A stretch of 64,000 bases of DNA, from the IMG/VR virus record IMGVR_UViG_3300013121_000027, positions 1-64,000 of that record; one strand, written 5' to 3'. Positions within the stretch are counted from its first letter, which is position 1. The number at the start of each line of letters is the position of its first letter. The position numbers and the translations under genes were made by a program. Positions 4,955 through 62,630 of the stretch are shown piece after piece. This stretch comes from a virus (lineage: Duplodnaviria; Caudoviricetes). Under the pieces are notes generated by a model that saw only the letters and a list, made by a program, of their open reading frames with translations, had not been told where the DNA came from and made no database searches.

Positions 4955-5206
4955 ATGCCAGAAGTATCCCAATACACTCTTGACTCATTAAAAAAGTTGG
5001 AGCAACGCGATCAAGAAGACGCAGCGCGAGCGCAAGCGAGCGCTGCTCCCACTCTTGAGTCTCTTGCGAAAGAGATCGCAGAACTGAAGGACGAAGTTCA
5101 TATACTTCGCGCCATCATTGATATCCACAATCAAGTCAATGTAACACAGGCTCAAATCAATCAAGAAGTTATCAAAAAACTTCGATTGTTTGGCATCATT
5201 ATCTAA
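4955..5206 (+). CDS. Hypothetical coiled-coil protein
   Basis: AAGGA RBS before ATG 4955. Confidence 0.6.
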   Translation: MPEVSQYTLDSLKKLEQRDQEDAARAQASAAPTLESLAKEIAELKDEVHILRAIIDIHNQVNVTQAQINQEVIKKLRLFGIII

Positions 5207-6186
5207 CTCGATCAGACGAGTAAAAATAGGAGTTTAAGTCTGATGCGTCCCTACCTGAAATTAAGTCAAAGGGGTAGGGGGTACTCAAGTCCCTGTGAGC
5301 TAATCCGCGCTCGGCATGTAGTCTTTAAATATTTTTGTGATATCACTATTGGCGTAGAAGATTTCGGATTATCGCCAAACAATCGTATCTATGTAGATTC
5401 TATAATCATAGATACACCTTTCAAACAATTATTATCTTGCTCAAATTAACATATGCTAAAGTCCCATAAAGTTATATATTTATGGGCATTGGGTTGAGTT
5501 CTAAAAAGGTGCTATTGAGTTCGATTAGTTCTGCTCATAGAAATGGATCTTCCAGCCTTCTATGCTCCAAATGCTAAGTCTATTGGGAAATAAACTTTGC
5601 GTTTGCCCCTTCATCTTTTTGATAGTTTGTTACGGGAATGTAAAATACTATGGACTACTCTTGTGTTATATCTGCAATGCGACAAGATATACCATAATAC
5701 CATTGAATTATAGCAATGGAAAATTTACATTCCCTTAAGAGATTATCAAAAGGAGTAATTAAATGATTGCTGCTTCAACACAAACAGAAGATATTCGTGG
5801 AGGAATTCTCTTTGTAGTTGTATTTGGTTTAGGAATTGGCTTTCTTTGGCTGATTACCCGCAATGCAACTATTTATCCGCCTCAGAAAAAGAGGGGAAGG
5901 AAAACTTCCTAAAAATCGTATCTTAAGTACTTAATTAATATGTGGAAATCTTAAGAACGCCTTACTCAATAACCTGAGAGTAATGGGTTGCATAGTTGGG
6001 TAACGCTATGTGACAAGCAAGTAAAACACTTAAAAGTCCCAGTCATGAGGAGACGTCTTGCCGTCTGTTATACCCCCCGCATGACTGGGCACTGATCTCG
6101 TATGTACCTCCTATATCATTGTGTGTACAAAAGGGTTTTACGGCTTTCCTTTAAAAACCGTATTGATCTAATAAGGAGACAAATGG

Positions 6187-6381
6187 ATGGCTCGTACCGA
6201 TGGACTATCGAAAGTTCTTGAGGAAGCTTTCGAACGAGGTTGGGTGATAGCTCGTAATAAAAATCACCTAATCATTCGATTCCCTCAGAACAATCAATGT
6301 GTCTCAATTTCGAAAACGGCATCCGACTGGCGTGCAATTCGAAATATCGAAAAGCAAATTCAGCGTTCTGAATTAGCTTAA
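6187..6381 (+). CDS. HicA-like protein
   Basis: GW..RNKNH...TASDWRAIRN pattern of phage HicA-like proteins; AAGGAG RBS. Confidence 0.6.
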   Translation: MARTDGLSKVLEEAFERGWVIARNKNHLIIRFPQNNQCVSISKTASDWRAIRNIEKQIQRSELA

Positions 6382-6853
6382 AGATCAACTCTGAGTGCCT
6401 TACCTCGGTGGTCCCATAGTCCGAATATTGTGTAGCTTGATCTGTGCATAAAACACATGGATTTAGGATATAACCAAAGATAGCTTGCTATCCGCTACTA
6501 AAAAGCGATCCGATAAACGAAGATATTTGGGTAAACACTATGGCAACTTTGCTTAATAACAGATTGAAAAGTAATGCAAGTCCTATATCTATAAGCTCAC
6601 TGTTAAGCTCATGTAATGGTATAGATATAGGCAGTTTCTACTTCTGGATATTAATACGATATAAAAAGTTCAGTTCTTTCGTGAACGAACTACGTGAATA
6701 TCCGACCCTCATCCGGCTGGAGGGTAAATACAGCGTGGGCGTGCCTGCTTGACTCCTTCGGGGAATAACACGTAATACGTAAGGAGATTAGGTTGGTTGT
6801 GGGTGACTACCATAAAAGTGGAACCCTCAATTTTTTTTCATGAAAGGATAAAC

Positions 6854-7045
6854 ATGAGAGTTGTTTGTGAAAATTCAGATCAACCTGGACAACCATGGCA
6901 TTATCTTGCAGATAGCATTCCTGCTCTTCCAATTCGTACAGCTGCTCGTGCAATTGGACAATTGACCAATTCCGCAAAAGAATGTATTGCGGTTACCGTT
7001 CATTTTGATGATGGTACTTCTACTAAAGTGACAGCATATGTCTAA
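6854..7045 (+). CDS. Hypothetical protein
   Basis: AAGGA RBS; overlaps the next ORF. Confidence 0.55.
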   Translation: MRVVCENSDQPGQPWHYLADSIPALPIRTAARAIGQLTNSAKECIAVTVHFDDGTSTKVTAYV

Positions 7046-7235
7046 CTTTGAAGTTCAAGTTCGATCTGAAAAAACAGGTATTCGGACTTTTCCAACAATC
7101 AAAGAAGCTTTTGATTTTGCCGAAACAAATTTTGATGTTTGGAAAATCAGCTTCGATGCAGCCAATGGCGAACGAGTTCGTCTTGTTCGCTTTGGTGTTT
7201 CTGCCAACACATTTCTTTACGAACCAATCATGTAG
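7038..7235 (+). CDS. Hypothetical protein
   Basis: Overlaps the preceding gene; VWKISF pattern. Confidence 0.6.
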   Translation: MSNFEVQVRSEKTGIRTFPTIKEAFDFAETNFDVWKISFDAANGERVRLVRFGVSANTFLYEPIM

Positions 7236-7256
7236 CTAAGAAAGGAGCCATATCCC

Positions 7257-7730
7257 ATGAATGTATTCGATTACATTCGCGAATCATGCGTCATGCAAAA
7301 TGCAACTCAGCCAGAAGATTTCATCGGTATGGCTCGTGCATATGACGTTCTCTACTACAAGTATCATGCAGGACAAGCTCTTCCTACTTTGGGAATCTTG
7401 CCTGACTTGATCTGCAATATTCTTGCAGAGCCTCATTGGGTAGATTGGCGGCGTCAACCTGCCACATTTGCCAATGGTAGAGTTGCAACTTCTCCAGAAC
7501 AAATCGAACGTTGCATCAAGCAATTGATGATGGTTCTTGAGAACGGTATTCTTACCGATCCTAATGAATTCTACTTCGATTTCGAAGAAATTCATCCTTG
7601 GCATGATGGCAATGGTCGAGTGGGTTCCCTTTTGTGGAATCTCATGAACGGCACGATTGCCTCTCCCATTCATCCACCTCAGCATCCTTCATGGATTCTT
7701 CCAAAAAAGAAAGCTGAACTGATCTATTAG
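7257..7730 (+). CDS. Fic/Doc family protein
   Basis: IHPWHDGNGRVG matches the Fic motif HPFxDGNGR. Confidence 0.85.
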   Translation: MNVFDYIRESCVMQNATQPEDFIGMARAYDVLYYKYHAGQALPTLGILPDLICNILAEPHWVDWRRQPATFANGRVATSPEQIERCIKQLMMVLENGILTDPNEFYFDFEEIHPWHDGNGRVGSLLWNLMNGTIASPIHPPQHPSWILPKKKAELIY

Positions 7731-8701
7731 TATCCAGGTACGCCTCGCTTGTACGTAAATCGGATAAACCAACATTCCTGAAAAGGTGAGGTTTTCCGTC
7801 GCTACTGAAAAACGAGTAAAGCGCCACTGCCTCGATACTGGACGCAGGACAACAAGCGTATTGTTGTTAAGCCTGGTCATGCTTTTCAAAACTGACCATC
7901 TTAATATATATCGATAAGAGAGTATAGATAGTTGGAGGTAAGCCATTAAAAGCAAAAGATATCGTAAGTATCTGAGCTCTATCTATACTCTTCTATGGGT
8001 ATATATTAATAAAAGATTTTTGGCGAGCCTAAAGTAAATCATAAGCGCTTATGAAAGAAATAGGAACAACTCAAAATAAACTACGTTTTATATCTAATAG
8101 TGCGGCTCAGCGACCTTTAGCTAGATGAGTACTAAGCGTGAAAATGTTTATATTGCGAAAACCGATGTCGCGCCAAATTTAAATGTTCACGAGAAATGCG
8201 CGCCTCGCCGCATCATGAACGTGACCTATCAGTGGATATAGGTATTGCGGAATTAGTTAATTCTAATTTAAATGATTTGACGCAAATTCCACACTTCTTG
8301 AAGAAGATCTAATATATCTGAATAGGGGGATATAATGATTGCCGATACTAGCAATAATACTGCACTTGTTATTATGGGAGTTGCCAGCTTAGTTGCTTTG
8401 TGTTTCATTTTTTGGCTAGCAACTCGCCACTAAAAATATTTATCTTGGATCTCACGGTTGGAAAGCTTCCAGTATCTTGCGTACAAGCCCAGAGCAGCAA
8501 ACGTTTGAAGCGTTTGCCAGGCATGGTAAGTTATTAGGTTATAAGGGTTTGTTTAGTTGCGCTGTCTTTCAGACCCGCGGCTAAACAAAACGCCTAATAA
8601 TAATACAAGATAATAGCTTAGTCCTGGTAGGTTTACATGGTGAGTTGGATGAGCCACGCGCAGCCAAACTACCAGGCAATCTCGATTAAGAAAGGATATG
8701 T

Positions 8702-9166
8702 ATGGCTTTAGAAACTATTACATATAACGATCTTTTAAAAGAGCGTAATCGTTGTCAACAACTGAAGATGCCTAAAGCTGTTATAGATGCAACTAATGTT
8801 GTACTCTTACCAGCTTTTCTCTATGGCATTGAAGATCATGTTGATGTTGCGCAATTTCATAAATACCACAAATGGATGCGTTGGAAAGTCTTCAAGCAAA
8901 AAGGCTTTGCTTGCATTTATTGCGGTCTTATTGGTACACATGCTGTACTTTGGGAAGAAGAAAACTGGGTTGCAGATGTTATTCAAGGACACTGTGATTT
9001 AGTTCATATTGGTGAAGATGGAAAACGCATTCTTCTAACTTTAGATCATTTCGTACCCAGATCTAAAGGTGGTTCAAATCGTATTGAAAATCTTTACCCT
9101 GCATGTTATATTTGTAATCATGTCAAAAAAGATAAAATCTTAATTGATTTTTCTCTTCCGTCTTAA
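8702..9166 (+). CDS. HNH endonuclease
   Basis: CIYCG...LTLDHFVPRSKGGSNRIENLYPACYICNHVK. Confidence 0.85.
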   Translation: MALETITYNDLLKERNRCQQLKMPKAVIDATNVVLLPAFLYGIEDHVDVAQFHKYHKWMRWKVFKQKGFACIYCGLIGTHAVLWEEENWVADVIQGHCDLVHIGEDGKRILLTLDHFVPRSKGGSNRIENLYPACYICNHVKKDKILIDFSLPS

Positions 9167-9609
9167 AGAATTAAGATATTTCGGATTTATCAATTGTAAT
9201 TATCGGGAATATCTTGCTCTTAATATAAGCTCTGTGGTCAGTAAGATTCGTTCTACTGTTTATGTGTATTATTGAGAGTGGGTTTGATTTCCACCGATTA
9301 CCGCCAACATATCTTATATCTCATATATGGGGACAGCCTCGGATTCATCCCTGCAGGTAAGAGGTTGCTTGAGAGTAGTATGCCAATGAATCACAGGCTT
9401 ATATGGATAACTTAGTGATTATTCATATAAGTCAGCTGGACTAAGAAGAAGCCAGCCGGACATGGTGATAGTTAGGCATTGCAAAGCTTCACCCATATTT
9501 GATTTCTCCGCTGTGTGGCACGCTCAGCATTAAGGGGATACTGATAAGTCTGGGATTAGTTATCCCATAGACGAAACAGTATAGGATGTAGACTGCATCT
9601 GTGCAACTA

Positions 9610-10365
9610 TCACGTACCAACTAATGCATTAAAAGCAGTTCCGTAGTCTAATACTGTATAGTTTAGACTTCTCAGCTTCATATTCGCATCCGCTAAAGAT
9701 GTATCTGCTGCTACACTAATCTGTAGTTTTGGATACATTCTATATATATTTTCCGTGTTCGGAATATAAACCCATCCTGATCCTCCAAATGAAGTATATT
9801 TTGTTGAAAATATACTATCAAATGTACATGGATAAGTAGCTGCGTGATATGGTGTAACAACTGGAATTCGCGAAAATTCTAAATAGTCTTCATCTCCTGC
9901 ATCATAAAAATCTGTACTAATAAAACCATCTTCAGAAATGCTTGTTACATCTGCTGCAGCATGTGTTCCAGAGGTTGACACAAAAGCAGAAAAAGATATG
10001 TGGTATAGATGTCCCATAATGGGGACTAATGTTCTTGTAGTTGAATTATTCCAACTTGCTTCATCACTAAAAGTGTAACTTGCGTTTTCATATCTAATTA
10101 CCCAAGGACTAACGCTGTTTGTCCATAAAGCATTAGTTACCGGCAATGAATAAGTCGCTGTTAAATCACCACCACCAAGAACTTTATCCATATCAATTCC
10201 TGATGCACCAGTACCTAAAGAATACATTGTTACTAATGTAATTAATGAATCTATTGAAGTACCTATTGGCGTTGATGGTGTTGCGGATTCTAATCCATTA
10301 AGTAATAAATTTCCGCTATTGATTTCCCATAAATTATTTCTGGTTAAAGAATAGTTACCCGGCAT
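9610..10365 (-). CDS. Hypothetical protein (beta-rich, possibly virion-associated)
   Basis: 251-aa S/T/G-rich ORF with AAAGGA RBS and TACTATA upstream. Confidence 0.65.
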   Translation of the reverse strand: MPGNYSLTRNNLWEINSGNLLLNGLESATPSTPIGTSIDSLITLVTMYSLGTGASGIDMDKVLGGGDLTATYSLPVTNALWTNSVSPWVIRYENASYTFSDEASWNNSTTRTLVPIMGHLYHISFSAFVSTSGTHAAADVTSISEDGFISTDFYDAGDEDYLEFSRIPVVTPYHAATYPCTFDSIFSTKYTSFGGSGWVYIPNTENIYRMYPKLQISVAADTSLADANMKLRSLNYTVLDYGTAFNALVGT

Positions 10366-10508
10366 GTCATTGTCCTTTGATCGAAGAATTCCCTTTCTAT
10401 AGTACCTTGAAGAATTGATTTCTTTTAAAGAGGAAAAAGAGGGGAACCTAAATCTTCTTCCACCTGCCGGGGGAAGATCAGTTCACGATCTGATTAAAAA
10501 TCGCACTT

Positions 10509-10597
10509 GTCCGGTTATTCAGGAGACGTGGTAAATCCATCTTTCAGTTGGGTTGTCAACGAAACTGCGCATGGGTTCGATTCCCTAAACCGGCACT
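10509..10597 (+). ncRNA. tRNA-like RNA (non-canonical or degenerate)
   Basis: ccggtt/aaccgg acceptor-like stem, GGGTTCGATTCCC T-arm, GG-containing D-like loop; no clean anticodon arm. Confidence 0.4.
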
Positions 10598-10635
10598 AAT
10601 AGATCCTGGCAGCTGTGCACAACATCGACAGCGGC

Positions 10636-11127
10636 TCAATTTAAGGTGAAACGATAATGTATGCCAGTCTTGTAGTTTGGATTATTCAACCCCTTTGAGC
10701 TTGTTTTAAAAGCTTCACTTCTACAAGAAATAGAACAAAAAGGATTTTCTGGATTTCTTACTTGCTTCTCATAACGTTTGAATAATTTAAAACATTGAGC
10801 ACAAATCCAATCTTTTCGTGTATCCTGTCCTCTTCTGCATGTTCCTACTTGTCCTCCAGAAGAAGAATTGTATCCTATTTTAGGATCACATGATTTAAAA
10901 TAAGATATCCAAAAAATTTCACGATCATTTAAGATTTCATCTTCGCATTCTTCGATTAACTCAATTTTGAAAAATTCTCTACCGTATTTTCTTATTGCTC
11001 GTGAAATAGGCATTTTTTCGCTTTTAGATGTACAATGCCTACTGAATCTTTCGTTTAATGGACGTATCGTTTGTCCAATATATACTTTATTATTTGACAA
11101 ACAAGTTATTTTGTAAATATTTCCCAT
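10636..11127 (-). CDS. GIY-YIG homing endonuclease
   Basis: NIYKIT...VYIGQT...R...E motif plus C-terminal Zn ribbon; TGATATAAT 6 nt before ATG. Confidence 0.9.
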   Translation of the reverse strand: MGNIYKITCLSNNKVYIGQTIRPLNERFSRHCTSKSEKMPISRAIRKYGREFFKIELIEECEDEILNDREIFWISYFKSCDPKIGYNSSSGGQVGTCRRGQDTRKDWICAQCFKLFKRYEKQVRNPENPFCSISCRSEAFKTSSKGLNNPNYKTGIHYRFTLN

Positions 11128-11175
11128 ATTTAAATTATATCATATTTTTATATGATAGAAAGGAGTTTATTCGAA

Positions 11176-11783
11176 ATGACTATCTGGCTCACTTCGGATC
11201 TTTGATCCACTTTGATCACAAAAACATTCTTAAATACTGCAATCGTCCATTTCAAGATGTAGATCATATGGCTGAAATCCTTGTTAGAAATTGGAATACT
11301 GTTGTAGATCCCTCTGACATGGTATTCATTGTTGGCGATTTCGCAATGGGACGTAGAGAAGAAACTCTCCCTATTGCTAAACGACTCAATGGCTTTAAAG
11401 TTCTTGTTCCCGGTAATCATGATCATTGTCATCCAATGTATGATGATGCGTCTGAAAAGTATAAAGCATATAAAAAGCTTTATGAAGAATACTTTGACGA
11501 CATTGTTTATGATCATGTGTATCAATTAGAAGATTTCATTCTTTGTCATTTTCCATATAGCGAAGGCAAAACTGATTACGCTGGTCGTGATTTCAGTGAA
11601 TGGGAACCAATGGATATTGGTATGCCTCTTCTTTGTGGACATGTTCATGAACTGTGGAGAATTAAGCTTTCTCCAAATGGGACTTGGATGTTTAATGTTG
11701 GTGTAGATGCGCCCGGCAATGATTATGCCCCAGTATCTTTAGACTACATTAAAACTTTGTATTTTGATTTGCTCATGCATTAA
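11176..11783 (+). pseudogene. Calcineurin-like metallophosphoesterase, frameshifted at codon 10
   Basis: AAGGAG RBS, then MTIWLTSDL, an extra TGATC, then HFDHKNI...GDF...GNHD...GHVH...NVGVD. Confidence 0.8.
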
Positions 11784-12054
11784 TTATACCATATCCACGG
11801 GATACTCAGCCGTGTAAGCTCATAGCGTACAAACCTATGAGACAGTCTTAATTGACTGAAGTGTAGAGCCGCGTTTTGGCATTATGAACGTGGGATCAGG
11901 ATCATGCCCAACTCTACTGATCAGAAGTTGTTAAACTCAGATCACTTACTTCTTTCCTTTAACTGGTGGTTTTACCCCAGTTGCTGGCATTTTGTTTGTA
12001 CCTGGTGCCTTAGCTATTACTGATTGTGGTCTAAAATTTTTAAATGGATTTAAA

Positions 12055-12165
12055 TTAGCATTTTTTGCCGCCACCAGATCCACCTTTCTTAGGTGTTGAC
12101 TTATGCATCGGCATAGGAGAAGATTTAGGTCCTGATTTTTTTGATGATTTCTTTTTTCCAGCCAT
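12055..12165 (-). CDS. Small Lys-rich peptide MAGKKKSSKKSGPK... (36 aa)
   Basis: TAAGGAG RBS, TACTATAAT upstream; below the ORF-track size cut-off. Confidence 0.6.
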   Translation of the reverse strand: MAGKKKSSKKSGPKSSPMPMHKSTPKKGGSGGGKKC

Positions 12166-12366
12166 TGGAAGCTCCTTAAGTAAGGTGAACTTCTATTATA
12201 GTAATTCTATATATTGTCTGTTGCATAGGCGTCAGATTGGGGTGGTTTTGGGAGGACAGCTAAACATATCCAAACCTAAACCTATGCAACAGAGAGTATA
12301 TAGATATTTCTTGCTTGAAAAAGAGAGGGAAAGCAAGCATATTAAAGCACGGATTGGAGATAAATC

Positions 12367-12963
12367 ATGTGCGTACATGTTGCTCAAAGCTATAAAACAA
12401 TTCATAAATTTCAGCAAATTACTCGTCTTCCATTTAGATTTGGATTTGATCATTCAAAGGTTGTAGGCTATGCTACAGCTGGTAAGACTACTATTGTAGT
12501 CGCTGCAACTTTGAAGGATACAGAAGGTAATCTTCAAAAATTCATCACTAACTGTGGATGGGGAACTAATATTGGTAATAACCTTGCATTCAATGCTCGG
12601 TTTGAAACCATGGCTTCTAAGCCTACTTGGAGGAATTCCGTCCAGGATCAGAGAATCCTTGTTCCTGTTGATGGATTCTATGAACGCGGATATTATATCC
12701 GTCCAGAAGATCCAGACAAGGCATTTGCTCTTGCTGGAATTACCGTAATGAATTCTCATCATCAAGCTATTATTGCCACACGTCCAGCTGCTAAGGCTAT
12801 TGCTGCAATTCATACTCGTATGCCAGTAATTGTCCCTGTTGATAAATGGAATGATTGGTTGAATCCAGAAGTTCCATTCTCTGAATTCGCCAATCTCATT
12901 AATCTTTCATTCCCATTTGGTATAGAAAGATCTGGTGAACACAGTGAAAGCAAAGCTTCATAA
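12367..12963 (+). CDS. SRAP (SOS response-associated peptidase, HMCES/YedK family)
   Basis: N-terminal MC, NARFET, DGFYE and HTRMPVI motifs. Confidence 0.85.
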   Translation: MCVHVAQSYKTIHKFQQITRLPFRFGFDHSKVVGYATAGKTTIVVAATLKDTEGNLQKFITNCGWGTNIGNNLAFNARFETMASKPTWRNSVQDQRILVPVDGFYERGYYIRPEDPDKAFALAGITVMNSHHQAIIATRPAAKAIAAIHTRMPVIVPVDKWNDWLNPEVPFSEFANLINLSFPFGIERSGEHSESKAS

Positions 12964-13268
12964 ATTTCTTTCACATAAGTTGGCATAGTTGCTAAAATAA
13001 TGGCTCTTTATTATCACGAAGAAGAAAAAGAAGCTGAGTTAACAGAGATTTTTGAGCATGTATTTGGTAGGTGCGATTGCACTGCGGAAGAACCAGATGA
13101 AAATTGTCCTGAACATGGTGATTTTCAACATGCATAGATTTGGACATATTTAACGCTAAATCTATCCTTGGCAAAAACCAAAATGAGAAGAACTAACTTA
13201 GTTTAGCATCGTGCTAATTCTTCCCGTTATATATGTCCAATATTCTTTAAAAAAGAGGGGAGGTAATA

Positions 13269-17079: not shown

Positions 17080-18174
17080 TTGACTACTGAATTAGATATT
17101 GTTGCAGATCAAGTTTTATCTGCAAAACGTCCAGAAGATATTTTTGGACTTCTTTTTGACATAGATGACGTATCTGAAAAATTTCGCGAAGTTAAAAGAA
17201 TTTACTATAAGCTTTCATTGATTCTTCATCCAGACAAAAATCATGGATCTAAACTGGCAAATGAAGCCTTTGCTAAATTAGGTAATCTTTATGAGACTGC
17301 CGGGGCAACCATACAAAGTGGTATATATGGTGCTCCTGCTCCTATTCTTGAGTTAGAAACTAAAAAGTTTACTTATAGTATCTTTGAGCCTCACTTTGAT
17401 TTTGGTATTACAACTGGATATGAATGCATCATAGATGCACGTATACCCGTAATATTTAATATTGCGAAATTACCAAAATTCAATTCTCGTATAGACCATG
17501 AAGCTAAAGTATTAAAAATTCTTTTCGATACTTCTGTTCCAACTGCTACTGGATTTTTCTCTATGCTTCCAGGAGTCTACGAAACTGTAAGCTACCAGGA
17601 AAATGGATTTTTGCGTAAAGCCAACCCATTTTTCCTTCCTCCCGGATATTGCACATTAGCTCAGGCTATTCAAGCTTATCCCGGTGGAATTTCGGCAGAA
17701 AGCCTTGTATGGATTTATCGCAGACTTCTTGATATTATTGGATTTGCCCATTCCAAAAAGATTATTCATGGCGCTGTTACACCAAATAATATTCTTATTG
17801 GACAAGATGATATTCACGAAGTTAAGTTAATTAACTGGCATAATGCAATTATAAACCCTGAAGAAGATAAGAAGTTTATTCCCTCTATTGAAAATCAGTG
17901 GAAGGATTTCTATCCACCAGAAGTATTTGAAAAAGAAATTCCTACTTATTCAGTAGATCTTTATATGGCAGCTATGTCAATTAAAGCTCTGCTTCTTAAA
18001 ATTCAAGTTCCACTTTCTCCAGAAACTAAAATTGCTTCTTTTCTTATTAGTTGTACGTCATCTAAACCTGCCTCGCGTCCTCATGACGCATGGAAGTTGA
18101 GGGAAGAGTTTACTGCTCTCACTAATAAAATATGGGAAAAGAAAAAGTACGTTCCATTTTCTTTGTCAAAATAA
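17080..18174 (+). CDS. J-domain (DnaJ-like) plus protein-kinase-like fusion
   Basis: HPDKN J motif; IIHGAVTPNNILI, YPPEV and DLYMAA kinase subdomains. Confidence 0.85.
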   Translation: MTTELDIVADQVLSAKRPEDIFGLLFDIDDVSEKFREVKRIYYKLSLILHPDKNHGSKLANEAFAKLGNLYETAGATIQSGIYGAPAPILELETKKFTYSIFEPHFDFGITTGYECIIDARIPVIFNIAKLPKFNSRIDHEAKVLKILFDTSVPTATGFFSMLPGVYETVSYQENGFLRKANPFFLPPGYCTLAQAIQAYPGGISAESLVWIYRRLLDIIGFAHSKKIIHGAVTPNNILIGQDDIHEVKLINWHNAIINPEEDKKFIPSIENQWKDFYPPEVFEKEIPTYSVDLYMAAMSIKALLLKIQVPLSPETKIASFLISCTSSKPASRPHDAWKLREEFTALTNKIWEKKKYVPFSLSK

Positions 18175-18192
18175 CAAAAAGGATATAACACT

Positions 18193-19203
18193 ATGGGTTC
18201 CTCTTCAACCACTGCTGATGATCTTGCTGCACGTGCAGCTTATCGTGCAGCTACTGGCACAAGCTATGCTTACAGTGCAACCATGCACGCTGTTCCCTTT
18301 CATGATCGTAAGATTCATGAATCTCTTGATCCTAAGCGTTTGAATACTCTTGGCAAGCAGATTCGCGAATGTTTCGATTCTATCGAGCATCCCCTTACCG
18401 TTCCTGTTGTATTTGGTTTTGATCAAACCGGATCTATGGGTAATGGTCCTCGCATCATCCAGGAGAAGCTTTCTACATTGAAGGGGCTTACCCTTCGTGC
18501 TGGTATGCCTGATGTTCAGCTTTGTTTTGGTGCATATGGTGATGCCCAGAACCATGAAATCGCCCCTTGTCAAGTTGGTCAATTTGAGTCCGGTCTTGAA
18601 ATGGAAGACTGGCTGAATAATCTTTTCCTTGAAGGTAATGGTGGCGGAAATGGTGGAGAGACCGCAGGTCTTTTTCTCTATTTCCTTGCTAACTATACCG
18701 ATCTCGATTCCGTTAACAAGCGTGGCAAGAAGGGCTATGTCTTTCTTACTGGAGATGAGATTGCTCTTCCCGTGACGCGCGCTGAGCTCAAAACCTATAT
18801 CGATGAAGATTCCGAAACTGATTATACCATCCAGCAAGTAATTGAGATGGTTACCAAGAAGTTTGAAGTTTTCTTTTTCTTGGTTGAGAATGGTGCCGCT
18901 CGTGCGCAGGGTTCTTTGAAGTTTTGGAGTGATCTTCTTGGCAATGATCACGTTATTGTTGTTGAGGATCTCAATAACATTAGTGAACTTGCTGCAACCC
19001 TTCTCGCCAATGAAGAGGGTATGATCACCAGTATTGATCATGCTACCGATCTTCTCAAGGCTGAAGGCGCTGCTGGCACGGCTATCGAAGTTGTTTCCAA
19101 GACCCTTGCTCATCGTGGCGTAGCAAGTACTACTGCCTCTGTTGCTACTACGACTGGTGGTACTCTTGCTGCCACTACAGCAGCGGATACGACTGACCTT
19201 TAA
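18193..19203 (+). CDS. vWA-domain protein
   Basis: DQTGSMG MIDAS motif, GGGNGGE, FLTGDE. Confidence 0.85.
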   Translation: MGSSSTTADDLAARAAYRAATGTSYAYSATMHAVPFHDRKIHESLDPKRLNTLGKQIRECFDSIEHPLTVPVVFGFDQTGSMGNGPRIIQEKLSTLKGLTLRAGMPDVQLCFGAYGDAQNHEIAPCQVGQFESGLEMEDWLNNLFLEGNGGGNGGETAGLFLYFLANYTDLDSVNKRGKKGYVFLTGDEIALPVTRAELKTYIDEDSETDYTIQQVIEMVTKKFEVFFFLVENGAARAQGSLKFWSDLLGNDHVIVVEDLNNISELAATLLANEEGMITSIDHATDLLKAEGAAGTAIEVVSKTLAHRGVASTTASVATTTGGTLAATTAADTTDL

Positions 19204-19344
19204 TTTCTTAATTAATGATTGTGGTCAGGCACCCGGTAATGATTTGATAGTTATAAGGGCTCGAACTGACTTTTGTCGATGACTACAGGTAACCACAATT
19301 ATTTTATTTAAGGAATTTATTTATGTCTCATGCCCGTGTAAGTA

Positions 19345-19977
19345 CTATTTTTTAAGCCATTCAATAGCCGCATGCAAATAATCAATATTATCTTTAAACA
19401 TTCCAAGACCCATATTGCAGGCATTGCATAGTAATCCTCTTACGCAATTGCGACAACCTTTTTTACAACATTTGTGATCATGATCAATAGCCCATTGATT
19501 ATCTTTACCGCCAGGTTTTTCATTACCACAAATTCCACATTGTTTCAATTGAGCATTATACCATTCAATATTTAAACCACGTCGAATCAATCGTTGATAC
19601 TTGCTTAAATATTCCCTATAATCTTTATCTTTTTTGTAACGAGGTTTACGCATTAAACGATTTTTGTTTGCAATAAAATTGGCGTGATGCATTTTGCATT
19701 CTAAAGACTTGCAAACCGGTAAAATTGTGTTGATTTGTTTTTGATGGAATGTACTTCCACAGTAAGTGCATTGAAAATCATACCAAATTTCACCATATCG
19801 ACTTCCGTCTTCTCTTTTATGTGAGTCATGAGCAATACCCAGTTGTCTTCTTTTTTTAAGTCGTTGATTTTTACCAATTCTGGATTTAAGTTTACATTCT
19901 TCACAACTTGGTATTCTTCCACGAGGCTTTGTCCTCGTCACCTCATTTGTTTTACATTGATCACAATAATAAATCAT
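19345..19977 (-). CDS. Endonuclease VII-family homing endonuclease
   Basis: CGICG...IDHDH...VRGLLCNACNMGLGMFKDN; TGGTACTAT 6 nt before ATG 19977. Confidence 0.9.
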   Translation of the reverse strand: MIYYCDQCKTNEVTRTKPRGRIPSCEECKLKSRIGKNQRLKKRRQLGIAHDSHKREDGSRYGEIWYDFQCTYCGSTFHQKQINTILPVCKSLECKMHHANFIANKNRLMRKPRYKKDKDYREYLSKYQRLIRRGLNIEWYNAQLKQCGICGNEKPGGKDNQWAIDHDHKCCKKGCRNCVRGLLCNACNMGLGMFKDNIDYLHAAIEWLKK

Positions 19978-20012
19978 ATTTAAATAGTACCATTTAAAAG
20001 GCGAAAAAATAG

Positions 20013-21386
20013 ATGTCGCACGCAAAAATTTCATGTGTTATTGATTTGTCCTTTGGTGATTCCGGCAAGGGCGCACACGTAGATTATCTCTGTCGTAATG
20101 ACAATGCTCGTCTCGTTGTTCGCTTTAATGGTGGAAACCAAGCAGGTCACAATGTTGTGACTCCAGAAGGCTTGCATCATTGCTTCCATCTCTTTGGCAG
20201 TGGAAGCTTTATTCCTGGAGTAAATACTTATCTTGCTCCTACTGTTCTTGTAAATATTCAGGCGCTTCTAAAAGAAGTTCATGATCTTAACAAATACGTT
20301 ATTGCTCCTCTCCTTCCGAGAATGTTTATTCATGAAGATTGCCCTATCATTACTCCATATCATATTTATATGAATAGGTATATGGAAATTCTTCGTGAAG
20401 ATAGTCCTCATGGTTCTTGTGGGCAGGGGATTGGTGCTTGTGCAGCAGATCTTGAAACACTTCATCCTGCTCTTATTCTTAGGATAAGAGATATTAGGAA
20501 TCCTGAAATCTTGAAGAAGAAGCTTCAAGCTCTTTATGACAGATGTGTCTTTGATTTTCCTCTTCATCTTCTAACTGATGAGCAAGCAAAAAGAATTGGG
20601 ATTTATACCGATTATCTTGAAGAAAACTGGATAAATCAGCTCACAAACTATTATGTAAATTCTTCTTCTCTTCTTCAAATCGTAGATAATACCTTCTTTG
20701 CTAATGCTCTTGAACAATATGAACATATTGTATTTGAAGGAGCACAAGGGGTACTTCTTGATGAGTGGTATGGTTTCCATCCTTATACTACTTGGAGTAG
20801 TACTAATCTTCGCAATGTCCATGCTATATTTGATCAGTATAATTATGCTGGTGAATACCATAATTATGGTCTTCTCCGAGCATATACAACTCGTCATGGT
20901 GCTGGTCCATTTCCAACAGAAGATTCAACATTGCTTGAATTTCTTAACGATGAATACAATCCAACGAATGAATGGCAACAAGACTTTAGGGTAGGACATT
21001 TTGATCCTTCTCTCGTAATCTATGCTATTCGTATGGCAAAAGATCCTGAATCTAAATGGCGCGGAATTGATAGCCTTGTTATTAGTAATGTGGATAGAAT
21101 GTTTGGTCTTCATCCAAAAATTGCATCACATTATCATATAACTTTTGGACAAAAAGATATTAATCATCAAGCAGAAAAAGCTTCTCTCTTAATGCATATG
21201 AATCTTTCTAACTATTCAGGAGTTACTCATGATGTACTGAGCTTCGAAAATATGATGTCTTATATTAAAGATATCATTGATGAAGTTGGTAGATTTGTTT
21301 CTCCCATTGGAGCAGTTTCTATTGTTGGTGTTGGTCCAACTTCAAAAGATAGAATCGTTATTAATACTCCTATTTACAAATCCTGA
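20013..21386 (+). CDS. purA: Adenylosuccinate synthetase-like protein (PurA family)
   Basis: GDSGKG, RFNGGNQAGHNV, GSCGQGIG, FEGAQG, TRHGAGPFP. Confidence 0.85.
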   Translation: MSHAKISCVIDLSFGDSGKGAHVDYLCRNDNARLVVRFNGGNQAGHNVVTPEGLHHCFHLFGSGSFIPGVNTYLAPTVLVNIQALLKEVHDLNKYVIAPLLPRMFIHEDCPIITPYHIYMNRYMEILREDSPHGSCGQGIGACAADLETLHPALILRIRDIRNPEILKKKLQALYDRCVFDFPLHLLTDEQAKRIGIYTDYLEENWINQLTNYYVNSSSLLQIVDNTFFANALEQYEHIVFEGAQGVLLDEWYGFHPYTTWSSTNLRNVHAIFDQYNYAGEYHNYGLLRAYTTRHGAGPFPTEDSTLLEFLNDEYNPTNEWQQDFRVGHFDPSLVIYAIRMAKDPESKWRGIDSLVISNVDRMFGLHPKIASHYHITFGQKDINHQAEKASLLMHMNLSNYSGVTHDVLSFENMMSYIKDIIDEVGRFVSPIGAVSIVGVGPTSKDRIVINTPIYKS

Positions 21387-30544: not shown

Positions 30545-31576
30545 ATGACTACTACCACCGCCCTAAAGACTGTGTTTGCTAAGGACGAGAGGACTGAGAA
30601 TTGGCTAAGGAGTCATGGTGTAATCTTTACCGGTCCAGTCGCAATTAAGCTCACTGACATTGACCGGAAAGTTTCTCGCAACAACCAAGCTCGTGACAAG
30701 GCTCTTATCGAAGATGCCGTAGATAGCTATCGTCAGGCACTTCGTAATGGGCAAGCCCTCCCGGCTATTGTTGTTCACAAGGTCGGTGCTAAGTATGTCA
30801 TCGTAGATGGCAATAATCGAGATCAAGCCGCCAATGAAGAAAAAGCTCTCAAGGCAATGGCTTATGTTCTCGATCCCGCTACTCCTTCAGAAACCATCAC
30901 TCTTCTTACCGTTACCGCAAACACCACTAATGGTGTTCGTGTTGATAAGTCTTGGTCCCTTCACAATGCTCTTTATCTCACTGAGCTTGGTTGGACTAAG
31001 GACAAAGCTGCTCGCGCCTTGAACGTTTCTGTTGCAGCTATTTCCGCTCATGAAAAAGAGCGCAACACTGGCAAGCGTGCTGTCGATCTGCGTATCACTG
31101 GGTGGAATACCATGCCCGTTCGCGTTCGTCAGATGCTTGGTCGCATTAAGCTTGATAAGCCGTTTGTGATTGTTGCTGAGGCGGCGATCGTTACTAAAAT
31201 TGGCTCATCTACTGAACTCAATGAAACGATTACCAAGATCAATCACGCAACCACTGAAGAAGAAGCAATTGAAATTGCTTCTCAGTGGGCTCGCGCAACT
31301 ATTGAAAATGCCAAGCAAAATGCTCGTATGGGCAAGAAGCATGGTAAGACCGACAACCCTAAGCTCAGTCTTATGACTGGTCTTGGTAAGGTTTCTGCTT
31401 TTAATCTTGGCATCTTCAATGCTACTTTCTCAACTGATGAAGATCGCCGCATCATCAAAGAGCGTCTTGACACCACTCTTGAAAAGCTTCTTCAAATGCG
31501 TTTCCGTTTGGTTGGAAAAGACGAAACCGAAGAGCAGGTTCTCACACTGCTCGACAATATTGGTAACGAGGGGTAA
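30545..31576 (+). CDS. ParB-like protein (ParB N-terminal domain plus HTH)
   Basis: LPAIVV...IVDGNNRDQAA (GxxRxxA) and KAARALNVSVAAIS HTH. Confidence 0.75.
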   Translation: MTTTTALKTVFAKDERTENWLRSHGVIFTGPVAIKLTDIDRKVSRNNQARDKALIEDAVDSYRQALRNGQALPAIVVHKVGAKYVIVDGNNRDQAANEEKALKAMAYVLDPATPSETITLLTVTANTTNGVRVDKSWSLHNALYLTELGWTKDKAARALNVSVAAISAHEKERNTGKRAVDLRITGWNTMPVRVRQMLGRIKLDKPFVIVAEAAIVTKIGSSTELNETITKINHATTEEEAIEIASQWARATIENAKQNARMGKKHGKTDNPKLSLMTGLGKVSAFNLGIFNATFSTDEDRRIIKERLDTTLEKLLQMRFRLVGKDETEEQVLTLLDNIGNEG

Positions 31577-32362: not shown

Positions 32363-33409
32363 ATGAATCACGCTCTTCTCGATGGGCTCCTGGAAGATTT
32401 CGGTACCTTTGATGATACCCTTGAGCAGTTGGAAATGTCCGGTGAGATCGTAACGATCGCTGCCGGTAAATGGAACAACGCTCAGGAAGCTATTGTCGTT
32501 GGTGACAAGAGTCATATGTTCAATGTGAGGTATCGCTTCGCTGATCCGATTCTGTCCTCGATCATTCTTCGTAAGACTCTTACCGCTACTCATCCTGAGG
32601 GTCGCATCGACTTCAATGCCACTATCGTTTCCCACCGCGACCTTCAGGTCCAGGTTGGTGACGATTGGATTGACATCGGCGCCTTTGCCGCTGCTGCGGT
32701 TCGTCGTGCCTCGCCCAATGCTCATCAGACTGATGACACCATCCTGAACATTCTCGCTCAGTATGGTTGGAATCCTACTGAGCGTTTTCCGATGTATCTC
32801 CAGCACCTTGGCGCTGGTCAGGATGCATTCAACCAGATCGCTAGTCATTTTGTGAGCATTGGTGCTACCGACAATACCAAGGATGTGCGTTCTCGTGCAC
32901 AGGGTCAGCGTAGCTCTGTTCTCGCTGCCTATCGTCATCCTGGTGATGTTCCCGTCATTTCCATGGAAACCTCCAAGGCAAACCGCAGTCTCAGCATGAC
33001 GGGCTCTGGCTTCATCGGTTTCCTCGATGGCACTTGGGGTACCTTGACCAAGGTTCTTGTTGCTCACCGTACTCGTCAGGCTCTCCAGACGATTCTCGAC
33101 AACCCGAACTCTACTGAGGCTCAGCGTACTCAGGCAGCTGCCAATCAGGCTCACATTCGCAACATTTTCACCACTCCCGTTCTTGCCCGTGCCTTCCGTA
33201 ACTGGGGTGGCACGACTGAAGTTCCTGATGTTCTCGGTGAGAACCCCAGCCGCTACTTCGCACAGCAGGTTCCTTGTGGTCGTTTCACCATTGACGGTGG
33301 TACGACCTACTCGGTGTGGACTTCTCGTGCAGATGGTACCGCTACGGCAACTCTTCCTGCTGCGACTCTTGCGGACGCTCTTCCTGCTTTGGAAACTGGT
33401 ACTTTCTGA
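32363..33409 (+). CDS. Hypothetical protein with high-expression codon bias
   Basis: GGAG RBS; strong optimal-codon usage. Confidence 0.8.
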   Translation: MNHALLDGLLEDFGTFDDTLEQLEMSGEIVTIAAGKWNNAQEAIVVGDKSHMFNVRYRFADPILSSIILRKTLTATHPEGRIDFNATIVSHRDLQVQVGDDWIDIGAFAAAAVRRASPNAHQTDDTILNILAQYGWNPTERFPMYLQHLGAGQDAFNQIASHFVSIGATDNTKDVRSRAQGQRSSVLAAYRHPGDVPVISMETSKANRSLSMTGSGFIGFLDGTWGTLTKVLVAHRTRQALQTILDNPNSTEAQRTQAAANQAHIRNIFTTPVLARAFRNWGGTTEVPDVLGENPSRYFAQQVPCGRFTIDGGTTYSVWTSRADGTATATLPAATLADALPALETGTF

Positions 33410-33639: not shown

Positions 33640-33852
33640 GTGACCAAACAACATAATTGTAAAGAAGTAAATTCAATGCTGAAGCAGATTGAGAAGCATG
33701 GCTTTTCCGTCTCCGCAAAAGCTAAATCTGGTAGCGTTAAGATAACTCCACCTTCAAATATTAAAGGTACTGTTTATCATACCCATGCTACTCAATCTTC
33801 ACTTCATCAAATCAGACGTGATTTTGCACGATTATATGGAGTGAAACTTTAA
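33640..33852 (+). CDS. HicA-like small protein
   Basis: HGFSV...GSVKITPP...H...IRRDF resembles the dsRBD-like HicA fold. Confidence 0.45.
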   Translation: MTKQHNCKEVNSMLKQIEKHGFSVSAKAKSGSVKITPPSNIKGTVYHTHATQSSLHQIRRDFARLYGVKL

Positions 33853-33950
33853 GTTGATGTTTTGTTACTCGTCTTTGAAAAAGATGGGGAATAATTCAAG
33901 TTCTGCAAATAAATATCAATCAACTTTACAAGGGGAGAAGTTTCAATACC

Positions 33951-36572
33951 ATGACTTTTTTTAGAGTTTACGACAACTCTGATTACGTCAAGTGCAATTT
34001 CATTTCGGATGATGCTTTGGCAGCTGAAATGAATGAGCGTAACCGTGCTAACGACTATCCAGCCGTTAGCTCGCCTGCTCTTATGGGGGGATACTGTTAT
34101 CCGATTCTGGATGACATCGTAGCGACTCATGCTAAAGGCGCTACGTATCAGATTCTTAAGGCTGGACTTCCTAAGAATGATGTCGCTAATCACGACAAAA
34201 TTTTGAGGCTTGTCGCTCAGCCTGAAACGCTCTATGCCTATGTAGATTCGGGTGACATCACTGTCGTCCAAATCGAAAATTGGAACCGTGCAGCGCTTCC
34301 TTTGTCTTCTATCAATTGGCTCATTTCCAACGGTAACAAGACTTTTAAGCGTCTCAAAACTCTTAATCGTCCTTTCCGTCTTTGGGATATTTCCGAAGAA
34401 GAGCTTCGCGTTATCGTTGTTGAAGATGATGATTATACCAATGAAGACCTTTCGGATTACACTGAAGCAGAGATTGAGCGCCTCTTGGATGGCGCTATCG
34501 TCATCAATCCCAAACTTTTTCAGGATTGTCTTGCTAATATCAAGTTTCCTGAATATGTTCAAGATGACAATCATCCCGAATTCGCCGTTGACTATTATCG
34601 TCAACAAGAATATTTGCGTCAGAGTGCAAACTTTCATGCATTCAATGGTCGCATTTTTGGACCGATGCATTTCATTGGTCTTCATCCTGGTGAAGAAGAT
34701 GATAAGTATCGCCGTCCTGGTATGCTCAAGGGTGAAGTTTTTCTTGATGTATCTGGTATGTGCGAACGGATGCATGCCGATATCATCTGTGCCCGTAGTG
34801 CCTTGAAGTTTGAAGTTGCCAATACCACTCAGCGTATTGTTCTTCTTGAGCCTCAAAAAGCCAAGTTGTCTGGCGTTTCTTCCGATCTTCAAACCATGAT
34901 CAATGTTCCTGCATTGTATCAGCCTGAAGATGTTCAGAAATGGACTCGCAACTTCTTGTTGGCTAACTTTAATCGTCTCAAGAACAATGAAGTCATGGAA
35001 TCTTGGTACGATATGTCCACTCCATTCTTCAATTCAAGTGCACGTATTTTCAATCAGAATGATGTACTCACTCTGACTAAGTGGAATGCTCGTGCTTGGT
35101 TGATGAGTGGTTTGCGTCTTACCGACTCTCCTTGGCTCTTTGAACAAATGGGTTCTGCAATCGCTAAGACTCTTCGTGTTCAAGATGAACAAAAGCTTCG
35201 CTTTCCGATTCCCTGCGCTGTACGTGCTCAGGTAGTCTCTGCATCATTTGCCTCTATGGCAGGATGTGATATGGAGGTCGTTCCTCAATCTGCTCGCTGG
35301 TGTGAAGATCTCGAAGCTATCGTTGTCAACGATATCGATTGGTTGGAAATGTATCGTAGTCATGGCGGACCTGATCTTGATGACTTCTTCGTTGCATACT
35401 GGCGTACTATTGGAAATACTCGCAAGATTGTTCTTGTTCGTTCTCCCAATGATTTGGGTGAATACAGCATTTTTGATTACGTCGAAGGTGACTGGTATCC
35501 TCAGATGGAAACTCATGATGGAGGATTTATTCTCTTTCCTGAAGTTTCTAACGATCCTAATCTTTGGGCTCAGCGCTTGTCTGAAGCCTATGAGTTGGGC
35601 GAAATCATCTACACCGGATTGCCCTCCGATGCTGATACAACTAAACCTGATCCTCATCCATACTGTTATGACGATGTAAAGTATCTTATCGAAAATAACG
35701 TCGCATCTGCGTCTTGTGTTGGTGCAAATGTCAACGCTCGTAGCTTGTGGGCATTGACTAAGCGTGAGCATCGTAAGGTTCAGTTGACTACCATGGAATC
35801 CTGCATTGACACAGGAACTCAAGGTGGACATCAAGACGATATTCAGGCTGTTCATGCTGAGGCTCGCCAGATTGTTGATGATATCATTGCAGATACTACT
35901 CTGAAGATTGACTCATATATGTGGTATACGAGATTCGCTAGCATTTTCAAGATGCCATTTTCTCCATCTCGTTTGACTTCAGATACGCATGTTTCTCGCG
36001 CAAATCAATTCCGTAAGGATGCTGCTCGCTCTTTCAATAAGATGGTTCGTGATTACGCTCAAACCCACCTTGTTAAGAACTTGAATCCAGTCATTCATGC
36101 ACTTGGCGCAAAACGTCTTCGTGCAGGATATGAAGTGATTCGCGAAACTCGTATGCAGATGTATCGCATGCAGACTACCGGAGATCAGACTCTTGAATAC
36201 AACTCTTGGCAGGATGTACATAAACTTATGTTGGAAAAGATTCATGAATTTAAATCTGATGTCGACAAGTTTGATTTTGTTCTTGGTATGTATTCCGCAT
36301 GTTTCAAAGCCCCTACCACTGCAGGTGGACGCATCACTGATCAATTGGTGATGAATCCACACATCTTTCCGTATCTCCTTAACGCACTTCGTTTCTATGG
36401 TCTTGCCTTCTACATCAATGTTGATGATGAAGGTCAGATCGTTCGGAATAAGGTGAACGAATGGGAGCTTGAGTGTAAGGTTTGCGGCGTTATAAAGACT
36501 ACGGATAATCCTACGATTCTCCAGTCTTATCACACCCATCTTGGTGTGTGTATGGAATGCCGTAACCCTTAA
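33951..36572 (+). CDS. Putative single-subunit two-barrel RNA polymerase (cellular RdRP/YonO-like), non-canonical DLDD site
   Basis: DGAIVIN, FNGRIFG..MLKG, RSALKFE, GL..DSPWL..KLRFPI, GGPDLDDFFVAYW, VRSP, VGANVN, CIDTGTQG; C-terminal CxxC..CxxC. Confidence 0.7.
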   Translation: MTFFRVYDNSDYVKCNFISDDALAAEMNERNRANDYPAVSSPALMGGYCYPILDDIVATHAKGATYQILKAGLPKNDVANHDKILRLVAQPETLYAYVDSGDITVVQIENWNRAALPLSSINWLISNGNKTFKRLKTLNRPFRLWDISEEELRVIVVEDDDYTNEDLSDYTEAEIERLLDGAIVINPKLFQDCLANIKFPEYVQDDNHPEFAVDYYRQQEYLRQSANFHAFNGRIFGPMHFIGLHPGEEDDKYRRPGMLKGEVFLDVSGMCERMHADIICARSALKFEVANTTQRIVLLEPQKAKLSGVSSDLQTMINVPALYQPEDVQKWTRNFLLANFNRLKNNEVMESWYDMSTPFFNSSARIFNQNDVLTLTKWNARAWLMSGLRLTDSPWLFEQMGSAIAKTLRVQDEQKLRFPIPCAVRAQVVSASFASMAGCDMEVVPQSARWCEDLEAIVVNDIDWLEMYRSHGGPDLDDFFVAYWRTIGNTRKIVLVRSPNDLGEYSIFDYVEGDWYPQMETHDGGFILFPEVSNDPNLWAQRLSEAYELGEIIYTGLPSDADTTKPDPHPYCYDDVKYLIENNVASASCVGANVNARSLWALTKREHRKVQLTTMESCIDTGTQGGHQDDIQAVHAEARQIVDDIIADTTLKIDSYMWYTRFASIFKMPFSPSRLTSDTHVSRANQFRKDAARSFNKMVRDYAQTHLVKNLNPVIHALGAKRLRAGYEVIRETRMQMYRMQTTGDQTLEYNSWQDVHKLMLEKIHEFKSDVDKFDFVLGMYSACFKAPTTAGGRITDQLVMNPHIFPYLLNALRFYGLAFYINVDDEGQIVRNKVNEWELECKVCGVIKTTDNPTILQSYHTHLGVCMECRNP

Positions 36573-61390: not shown

Positions 61391-62170
61391 ATGAATTATG
61401 ACGATGATGATATCTTTAAGAAAAATGATGACGATATTCTTCAAACATCTTCATTTTCTTCTTCAGAACGCGTAAGAGGTCTTAATGTCCCAGGTTATCT
61501 TCGTGATGCTCTTGAGCGTTATATAAAAGATAATCCTGGTTTTGGAAATTCATTTAAGCAATTTCAAAATAATGAATTTAAGAATATCTATAAAGTTATA
61601 GATCTCTTTTCTTCTGTTCAAAAGATGTTGATTAAATTTGCTCCCGATACTTCTTATGGACCTCTTGCCAGGGCTTTAACTCATGTTCTTGATAGCGCTT
61701 ATGAAGGCGCTATTCAAAGAACCTATAAGGCTATCGTTATAGAGTCTGATCTTATTGCTCTTCATATGAACTTGAATTTCTTGTCTTCAACTCAAGAAGC
61801 TATTATAAATTCAGGACAAGAACTTCATGAAGCTGGTGAAATCTTTTATCAATTTCTCCTTACTTCAATAGAATTAACTATTTTCTGCATTAAACAAAAG
61901 GCGATAGATTACGTCTCCGCTTGTGAAACTTCTAATCTTAAACCAGATACTAATATAATTGAATATGGTTTTCGTAAAGAAGCAGATTTTCCATTTGATG
62001 TAGGAACTAAAGCTTATACTATAGGATATCATTATATTTATGGAGATGTCAGAGATGTTTCCGTAAATTACGAAGCCTCCATACGAAATAACTTCATTAA
62101 GTATTTTGTTCCAATGTTGTATAAAGATGAGGCTAAGGCATATGAGTCAATCTCCGCTAATATTGCCTGA
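61391..62170 (+). CDS. Hypothetical protein
   Basis: Contiguous ORF. Confidence 0.65.
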   Translation: MNYDDDDIFKKNDDDILQTSSFSSSERVRGLNVPGYLRDALERYIKDNPGFGNSFKQFQNNEFKNIYKVIDLFSSVQKMLIKFAPDTSYGPLARALTHVLDSAYEGAIQRTYKAIVIESDLIALHMNLNFLSSTQEAIINSGQELHEAGEIFYQFLLTSIELTIFCIKQKAIDYVSACETSNLKPDTNIIEYGFRKEADFPFDVGTKAYTIGYHYIYGDVRDVSVNYEASIRNNFIKYFVPMLYKDEAKAYESISANIA

Positions 62171-62630
62171 AGAACGAATCCAAGGTACTTATCCGGAATT
62201 TCAAAAAGAAATAAAACAACGTTCAATTGAATGTCAAATAGCATTAGATAATGATGCAGCTTGCCGACGACAAGGGCTTCATCCGTATTTTCTAAATCCA
62301 GCTAAAGCTCAATTTGTTATTCAAACTTTCTGTAAGGAATGTTTGGTTCGACAATATTGTTTAGATCTTGCCTTAATAGATCAAATAGAACCTGGAACTT
62401 GGGGTGGCTTTGATGAATTTTATAGAAAAGGAATTCTTACTGCCACAAGACGAGAATTTTGCGCTAAAAACCCAGACGTAAGTCCATCTATTCTTCCATC
62501 TCATCATCCTGATTTTTGGAATCTACTTCAGCTTAGATTTACTCAGGCTGCTAAAAGTCCTAAAAGACTTTATACCAAGCTTGGAATACCTCTTAGAAAA
62601 AGTAAAGATAAGAATTATTTAGCTCTTTAA
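62142..62630 (+). CDS. whiB: WhiB-family transcription factor
   Basis: AAC...F...CKECLVRQYCLDLAL...GTWGG (four Cys plus GxWGG). Confidence 0.85.
   Translation: MSQSPLILPEERIQGTYPEFQKEIKQRSIECQIALDNDAACRRQGLHPYFLNPAKAQFVIQTFCKECLVRQYCLDLALIDQIEPGTWGGFDEFYRKGILTATRREFCAKNPDVSPSILPSHHPDFWNLLQLRFTQAAKSPKRLYTKLGIPLRKSKDKNYLAL

Follow-up and report, generated by a model that had tools for sequence, protein, structure and literature searches.

RNAP1, a predicted single-chain two-barrel RNA polymerase with a rethreaded catalytic barrel from an unannotated phage family

All cellular transcription is regarded as resting on an invariant core, the double-psi barrel with its DxDxD loop, and evidence that such barrels can change fold has come until now mainly from protein engineering (PMC11258233). 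In this work, we analysed a window of 64,000 nucleotides (nt), positions 1-64,000 of the complete 231,459-bp phage genome IMGVR_UViG_3300013121_000027, which carries an open reading frame (ORF) at 33951-36572 (+ strand) whose 873-amino-acid (aa) product we named RNAP1. By its predicted fold, RNAP1 belongs to the two-barrel polymerase superfamily as a structural variant, and it is probably a non-virion, single-chain, DNA-dependent RNA polymerase (RNAP) of a large unannotated phage family. We further considered a wider reading, in which this is an active RNAP family with a barrel connectivity that is new among the solved two-barrel enzymes compared (one psi loop is lost and strands b3-b4 follow b6), with a DxDD loop and no basic residue in the trigger loop, and in which three old paralogues form a fully phage-encoded three-step relay in actinobacterial jumbo phages. 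Taken as a whole, this combination is evenly poised between right and wrong.

A natural, widespread family with a rethreaded barrel and a shorter metal loop would make it directly testable which parts of the core are needed, and if the reading is true, the active site of an ancient polymerase is buildable in more than one way. Such a family also explains why searches with hidden Markov models (HMMs) miss genes of the RNAP1 type, and therefore phage-encoded transcription is under-counted. As a single chain of 873 aa with a candidate promoter, the system is tractable for biochemistry.

Gene family and the catalytic barrel

The ORF is intact, and the landmarks read by eye in the initial annotation were located as claimed: D180-G181 at nt 34488, the GGPDLDD loop with the next strand at 35364-35402, RSP..GE at 35430-35462, and also VGANVNA, CIDTG and the cysteine pairs C842/C845 and C867/C870. 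A contig from an independent study (X5) spans the catalytic region (35147-35909) with zero differences, so the rearrangement described below is not an assembly error. No significant match to the RNAP1 sequence was obtained in Pfam, PHROG, NCBIfam or PDB using phmmer and profile searches, the PF05183 HMM included (no Pfam match at E<=1), and a search of the ESM Atlas by features returned nothing. Cultured phages gave no tblastn match with RNAP1 or with a tail-type paralogue from the same genome, five cultured phages with related capsids gave none with the family profile, and plasmids gave none when searched with one distant homologue.

The homologue searches yielded 122 close and 178 representative homologues and 52 viral loci, and 309 distinct sequences were pooled. 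The aligned homologues extend down to ~22% identity. D475, D477, D478, R497 and P499 are invariant across 297 aligned sequences (each Asp in 297/297), and K133, R134, D180, K260, K286 and D620 are 99-100% conserved (K260 and D620 100%, K286 99%). Because the key residues are conserved to such a distance, the landmarks are not chance resemblances. The proposal of a new phage clade was borne out. The literature searched, which did not extend to most subscription journals, contained no account of a two-barrel RNAP that is rethreaded or has DxDD. Longer fused forms of the family were not found using the alignment, which is a weak test. As a separate observation, one family member of 1533 aa (P0206, locus L065:3863-8464) is fused to a RecD2/PIF1-like helicase. 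A distant member (P0257, locus L066:10001-12763) lies close to a weak match to a TraG-type P-loop ATPase and possibly belongs to a non-phage mobile element.

In a double-psi barrel, neighbouring strands follow one another around the closed barrel as b1, b5, b2, b4, b3, b6, two of the pairs being parallel. The catalytic, beta-prime-like barrel of RNAP1 (residues 423-510; 35217-35480, +) has six strands in the full-length model, at 423-430, 447-451, 456-459, 479-487, 490-497 and 506-510 (S1 to S6). Covariation in an alignment of 290 sequences (effective number 190) gave antiparallel ladders for S1-S4, S4-S5, S5-S6 and S2-S3, a parallel ladder for S2-S6 and a weaker parallel one for S1-S3, and parallel-type couplings were seen at 447-509, 447-511 and 426-457. 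When the 1920 closed six-stranded arrangements were ranked, the first was a double-psi barrel with S1=b1, S2=b2, S3=b5, S4=b6, S5=b3 and S6=b4 (score 26.4), and the canonical threading came 1663rd (score 10.9). The chain would then run b1, b2, b5, helix, DxDD, b6, b3, b4.

The catalytic domain was also folded alone (predicted local distance difference test, pLDDT, 94) and aligned, with chain order preserved, to the barrels of cellular and viral RNAPs, to gp96, to AAA N-domains and to symmetric designed barrels. These alignments cover the full target barrel yet end at model residues 77-84 (protein residues 484-491) and do not take in the RxP hairpin; they comprise 51-62 residues at root-mean-square deviation (rmsd) values between 2.4 and 3.1, and 51-60 residues at 2.4-2.8 against true double-psi barrels. 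A moved b3-b4 hairpin predicts such ranges. The covariation and superposition tests draw on overlapping alignments. On both, it is highly likely that the b3-b4 hairpin has been transposed behind b6, giving a rewired barrel. The permuted barrel first suspected therefore stands as a rearranged barrel, but as a hairpin transposition instead of a circular permutation. The latter, a swap of the barrel halves, was rejected, since along the chain its pairing pattern would still be the canonical one, ranked 1663 of 1920. A comparison of the family profile with the enzyme of phage 0305phi8-36 was also set aside as not being evidence: canonical reordering of the profile gave the best alignment (3.5 bits over 64 positions vs -1.4), but this lies below the top decoy at 6.0.

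Two results weigh against this threading. The domain-level Z-scores are low (2.4-3.1), for which reason only the alignment ranges were used, and the runner-up by covariation (25.0, a small margin below 26.4) has the same strand order with all pairs antiparallel, so that the strand directions are less certain than the order. The barrel may accordingly have some other topology, for example an all-antiparallel, DZBB/RIFT-like one, or the upstream DNA motif treated below may be an antisense terminator or a ribosome-binding variant. Such a failure of these sub-claims only is unlikely, though it is the strongest of the alternatives. For the barrel, the all-antiparallel arrangement in second place speaks for it, but the parallel-type couplings and the close fit to true double-psi barrels speak against it.

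Active site and predicted activity

The AlphaFold2 model of RNAP1 has a pLDDT of 92.4 and a predicted template modelling score (pTM) of 0.91. All 23 Foldseek matches at E<=0.001 are single-chain two-barrel polymerases, and VIA-align gave RDR2 (Z 13.2, rmsd 6.8, 577 aligned residues), QDE-1 (Z 10.3, rmsd 5.8, 616), P23-45 gp64 (Z 9.6, rmsd 7.0, 468), P23-45 gp96 (Z 7.0, rmsd 4.4, 327) and phi14:2 gp66 (Z 5.8, rmsd 6.2, 496), with unrelated folds at Z <=4.1. The two-barrel fold claimed from the letters thus agrees with the model, which matches only single-chain two-barrel polymerases. PolD DP2 was not among the listed structural matches, an absence that does not exclude a match. Atlas clusters linked to Acidobacteriota stood at TM 0.53-0.55.

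The first, beta-like barrel covers approximately residues 178-301 (34482-34853, +; approximate boundaries from secondary structure), where D180, N232, R234, K260 and K286 are 83-100% conserved. K260 and K286 supply the two conserved basic residues that are a feature of the superfamily. The helix preceding this barrel bears K130, K133 and R134 (34338-34352, +; 95-100% conserved). Using the residue roles described for QDE-1 (PMC9508822), this helix would, by order, be the counterpart of the one bearing R671, and the order of motifs suggests that D180 corresponds to D709, N232/R234 to Q736/R738, K260/K286 to K743/K767, R497/P499 to R962/P964 and D620 to D1116. In QDE-1, the RxP Arg binds the 2'-OH and selects ribonucleotides (PMC9508822).

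In the second barrel, the GGxDxDD loop with D475, D477 and D478 (35364-35384, +) is one residue shorter than GGxDxDGD; with the 0305phi8-36 enzyme as the canonical control, the missing residue is the Gly. After the loop comes the strand matched to b6 of canonical catalytic barrels. GxDxDD is present in 282/309 family sequences and GxDxDGD in 0/309, and the DLDD without Gly that had seemed abnormal in one protein is the rule, since all 297 aligned homologues have DxDD and never DxDGD. The exact DxDxD spacing of the superfamily is absent, and RNAP1 is therefore classed as a variant. Behind the loop lies the R497-S-P499 gate with G503-E504 (35439-35462, +; R and P 100% conserved). The unusual position reported for this segment is shared, as RxP follows the loop in 277 of the 282 GxDxDD sequences, mostly 18-23 residues on. 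A putative bridge-helix/trigger-loop region (G591, N595, E616, D620; 35718-35825, +) was assigned by motif. Three residues after D620, where QDE-1 has K1119, RNAP1 has Thr (position 623), and the family as a whole has T, I, V or A. The C-terminal CxxC..CxxC zinc finger (C842/C845, C867/C870; 36474-36560, +) is present as first described, but it is an accessory element owing to its patchy distribution: 38/45 close homologues have it, 0/73 of a second group (~30% identity) and 35/116 distant ones.

In the proposed mechanism, the first barrel would provide two Lys, an Arg and an Asp, and the second three Asp for Mg2+ together with the RxP gate, allowing two-metal catalysis at the barrel interface by the same residues brought in by a differently threaded chain. 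If the double-psi arrangement is kept with the RxP hairpin after b5-helix-DxDD-b6, the same residues can meet in space. The shortened loop may still bind metal through D475, D477 and D478, probably by a backbone kink. From the model and the conservation, we are confident, short of certainty, that RNAP1 is an active RNA polymerase.

Some points weigh against activity. Neighbouring Asp that open a strand usually point in different directions, and the triad geometry is sensitive to the fourth-position residue (gp66 paper); the Lys by which the trigger loop of QDE-1 contacts the gamma-phosphate has no counterpart in the RNAP1 family. With two departures from the catalytic consensus, the short loop and the missing Lys, RNAP1 might be weak or catalytically inactive, a DNA-binding or regulatory protein with another paralogue transcribing. 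RNAP2, a second paralogue in the genome, also lacks the Lys in its copies, and 3/4 inspected copies of the third, tail-type paralogue keep a Lys in the motif. However, conservation at 99-100% of the three Asp, both Lys, D180, R497, P499 and D620, down to ~22% identity, is hard to explain without chemistry, and DxDD is common to all three paralogue classes. A weak or inactive RNAP1 is consequently improbable.

It is equally improbable that RNAP1 copies RNA, alone or besides DNA, in the manner of QDE-1/RDR2, to make antisense or double-stranded RNA. RDR2 and QDE-1 do give the top structural scores, and QDE-1 possesses both activities (PMC9508822). On the other hand, RDR2 leads gp64 by only ~3.6 Z, with rmsd near 7, and the phage enzymes that have been characterised, YonO, gp64, gp96 and gp66, are DNA-dependent. 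RNAP1 itself comes from a double-stranded DNA genome whose tail module holds a paralogue, and a DNA motif lies upstream of its gene. Supported by this context, we infer, in line with the initial annotation, that RNAP1, if active, is very probably DNA-templated. The least probable alternative, an active two-barrel nucleotidyltransferase with another product (primers, DNA as in PolD, or template-independent polymers), is suggested by the helicase fusion and the nearby TraG-like ATPase of distant homologues, but is opposed by the invariant RxP Arg, by a DnaE-like ORF already in the phage genome (recognised by eye) and by the lack of any helicase-type fusion in RNAP1 or its close relatives.

Genome context and the upstream motif

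The complete genome has a terminal repeat of 141 bp, and 22 tRNAs were predicted in it, among them one with a CUA anticodon at genome positions 82082-82155 (L057). The phage is a myovirus, given its capsid, portal, terminase and two sheath genes. A WhiB transcription factor at 62253-62429 of the window, within 62106-62630 (+), makes the host probably actinobacterial. Three GTDB matches were not used for host assignment, being probably phage contigs binned into metagenome-assembled genomes. Sigma-70 region 2 was not found in the phage genome.

RNAP2 (896 aa) has its probable start at genome position 227585, and the tail-type paralogue (1470 aa) lies at 166642-171054 of the genome, flanked by homologues of 0305phi8-36 gp145 and gp147; it therefore occupies the position of gp146, the tape-measure protein. 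A search with the tail paralogue returned only itself. A second or third paralogue is found in 11/15 related genomes, one of which (G001) also has a duplicate RNAP1 match. RNAP1 and RNAP2 copies cluster by class across genomes with strong support in the tree, and the tail-type grouping may reflect long branches.

The 11-mer A5-GAGGGG occurs in nine exact copies on the + strand and none on the - strand (0.18 expected). With one mismatch allowed there are 14 copies on the + strand, 13 of them between RNAP2 and RNAP1 on the circular map. One (33877-33888, +, one mismatch) stands 74 nt before the RNAP1 start codon, 11 form a cluster at 536-13260 (+; 537, 727, 1475, 2395, 2828, 3264, 4350, 5886, 10434, 12318 and 13250), and further copies lie at 28066 and 47270 (+). 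Three lake genomes carry the variant A5-GAAGGG on the same strand and in the same interval (6, 4 and 6 copies; reversed control 0). In 48 loci, which are not independent, the motif stands upstream of the gene 39 times forward vs 7 reverse and downstream 3 times forward. Near the RNAP1 gene, sigma-70-like sites are about as common as by chance (43 vs 35.8). From these patterns, A5-GAGGGG is a candidate promoter element of the phage. The initial annotation had noted neither this motif nor the two paralogues nor the missing trigger-loop Lys.

The promoter reading has evidence against it. Of ten relatives tested, seven lack the exact motif in the corresponding interval, and motif discovery found no promoter for RNAP1 itself and none clear for middle or late genes. 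About half of the copies begin a hairpin which, on the minus strand, reads as a stem followed by a T-run, and some copies have the spacing of a Shine-Dalgarno sequence, as an antisense terminator or a ribosome-binding variant would. Against these alternatives, the exact 11-mer is conserved with varying stem partners, five copies have a separate Shine-Dalgarno sequence with the start codon 48-59 nt downstream, and the motif drops off past the gene. No RNA data were listed among the sequencing runs searched for the phage.

If A5-GAGGGG is a promoter element, a relay can be proposed by analogy with P23-45. A virion-delivered paralogue (or the host RNAP) would express the terminal region including RNAP2; one phage enzyme, most simply RNAP2, would read A5-GAGGGG and express the early block up to RNAP1; and RNAP1 would transcribe middle or late genes. 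The exact order of tail enzyme, RNAP2 and RNAP1 is tentative, and we place it slightly below even.

Directly upstream of RNAP1 lies a 70-aa ORF (33640-33852, +) that is conserved across the clade, with tblastn matches in 28 related loci, and adjoins the polymerase in five close relatives; it has no Pfam or NCBIfam match, and its HicA-type likeness is by eye only. A 348-aa ORF (32363-33409, +), without a usable Atlas match, lies upstream of the polymerase gene in four close relatives as well, and a ParB-like protein with a weak helix-turn-helix match (30545-31576, +) is encoded three genes upstream. G+C content is 51-53% in window positions 1-4000, where the motif cluster is densest, vs 30-44% elsewhere in the window. 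A motif copy stands in front of the gene for an SRAP-domain protein (12367-12963, +). The word TACTATA, a weak late-promoter candidate, stands in front of six late or replication genes at a distance of 29-90 nt (L054, L056, L059, L060; genome 101996-197484, minus strand), its 58 genome copies including 17 intergenic and 7 antisense ones. Another word, CGCTATAT(T/C)CACAT, is upstream of RNAP2 (L055:12531-12544) and, in one relative, upstream of RNAP1 (L100 near 9965). Window positions 17080-21386 (+) encode a fusion of a J-domain with a kinase, a protein of PHROG 2971 and a homologue of adenylosuccinate synthetase. For this homologue PurZ is the top PHROG label, but the P-loop has retained the Asp of the PurA type and NCBIfam prefers PurA; none of these matches reaches the cut-off.

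Comparison with known polymerases

QDE-1 (PDB 2J7N, 7Y7P) and plant RDR2 (7W82, 7EU0) are, like RNAP1, single chains with two barrels and an RxP gate. They share its overall fold (Z 10-13, ~570-620 aligned residues, rmsd 5.8-7.5) and the order of the DG, Lys, Lys, bridge-helix and trigger-loop motifs. Unlike them, RNAP1 is phage-encoded, has no PF05183 HMM match, has DxDD in place of DxDGD, carries RxP behind the loop and has no equivalent of K1119; the identity is 10-13%.

YonO of the Bacillus prophage SPbeta (PMC5467207) and the 0305phi8-36 enzyme are single-chain phage two-barrel proteins whose loop starts with GG-x-D-x-D as in RNAP1, and phage 0305phi8-36 resembles the RNAP1 phage in its capsid protein and tail gene order. 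In contrast to RNAP1, the 0305phi8-36 enzyme matches PF05183 (E 1e-20), has DTDGD, carries RSP 44 residues before the loop and keeps the trigger-loop Lys; the RNAP1 family profile does not detect it. Of the RdRP/YonO-like assignment (RdRP, RNA-dependent RNA polymerase) in the initial annotation, the two-barrel fold was retained, whereas the PF05183 match, DxDGD, K/R-x-P before the loop and the trigger-loop Lys are all missing. The best reading, by analogy, is that RNAP1 works like YonO and gp64 but falls outside the RdRP/YonO (PF05183) family.

Thermus phage P23-45 also has paralogous enzymes of this fold, the non-virion gp64 and the tape-measure-fused virion RNAP gp96, and a conserved motif upstream of early genes (bioRxiv 2022.12.01.518664). 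P23-45 has two paralogues, whereas the RNAP1 phage, a myovirus with a probable actinobacterial host, has three. The catalytic barrel is well conserved in gp64 and gp96 (bioRxiv 2022.12.01.518664), and RNAP1 does not share the canonical connectivity of gp96, as the alignment covers model residues 15-81 and ends before the RxP hairpin. Finally, gp66 of the crAss-like phage phi14:2 (PDB 6VR4), a virion protein of 2180 aa unlike RNAP1, has the two-barrel fold and is active without the loop Gly (DFDID). In gp66, Ile replaces the Gly and the DxDxD spacing is kept, whereas in RNAP1 the residue is deleted.

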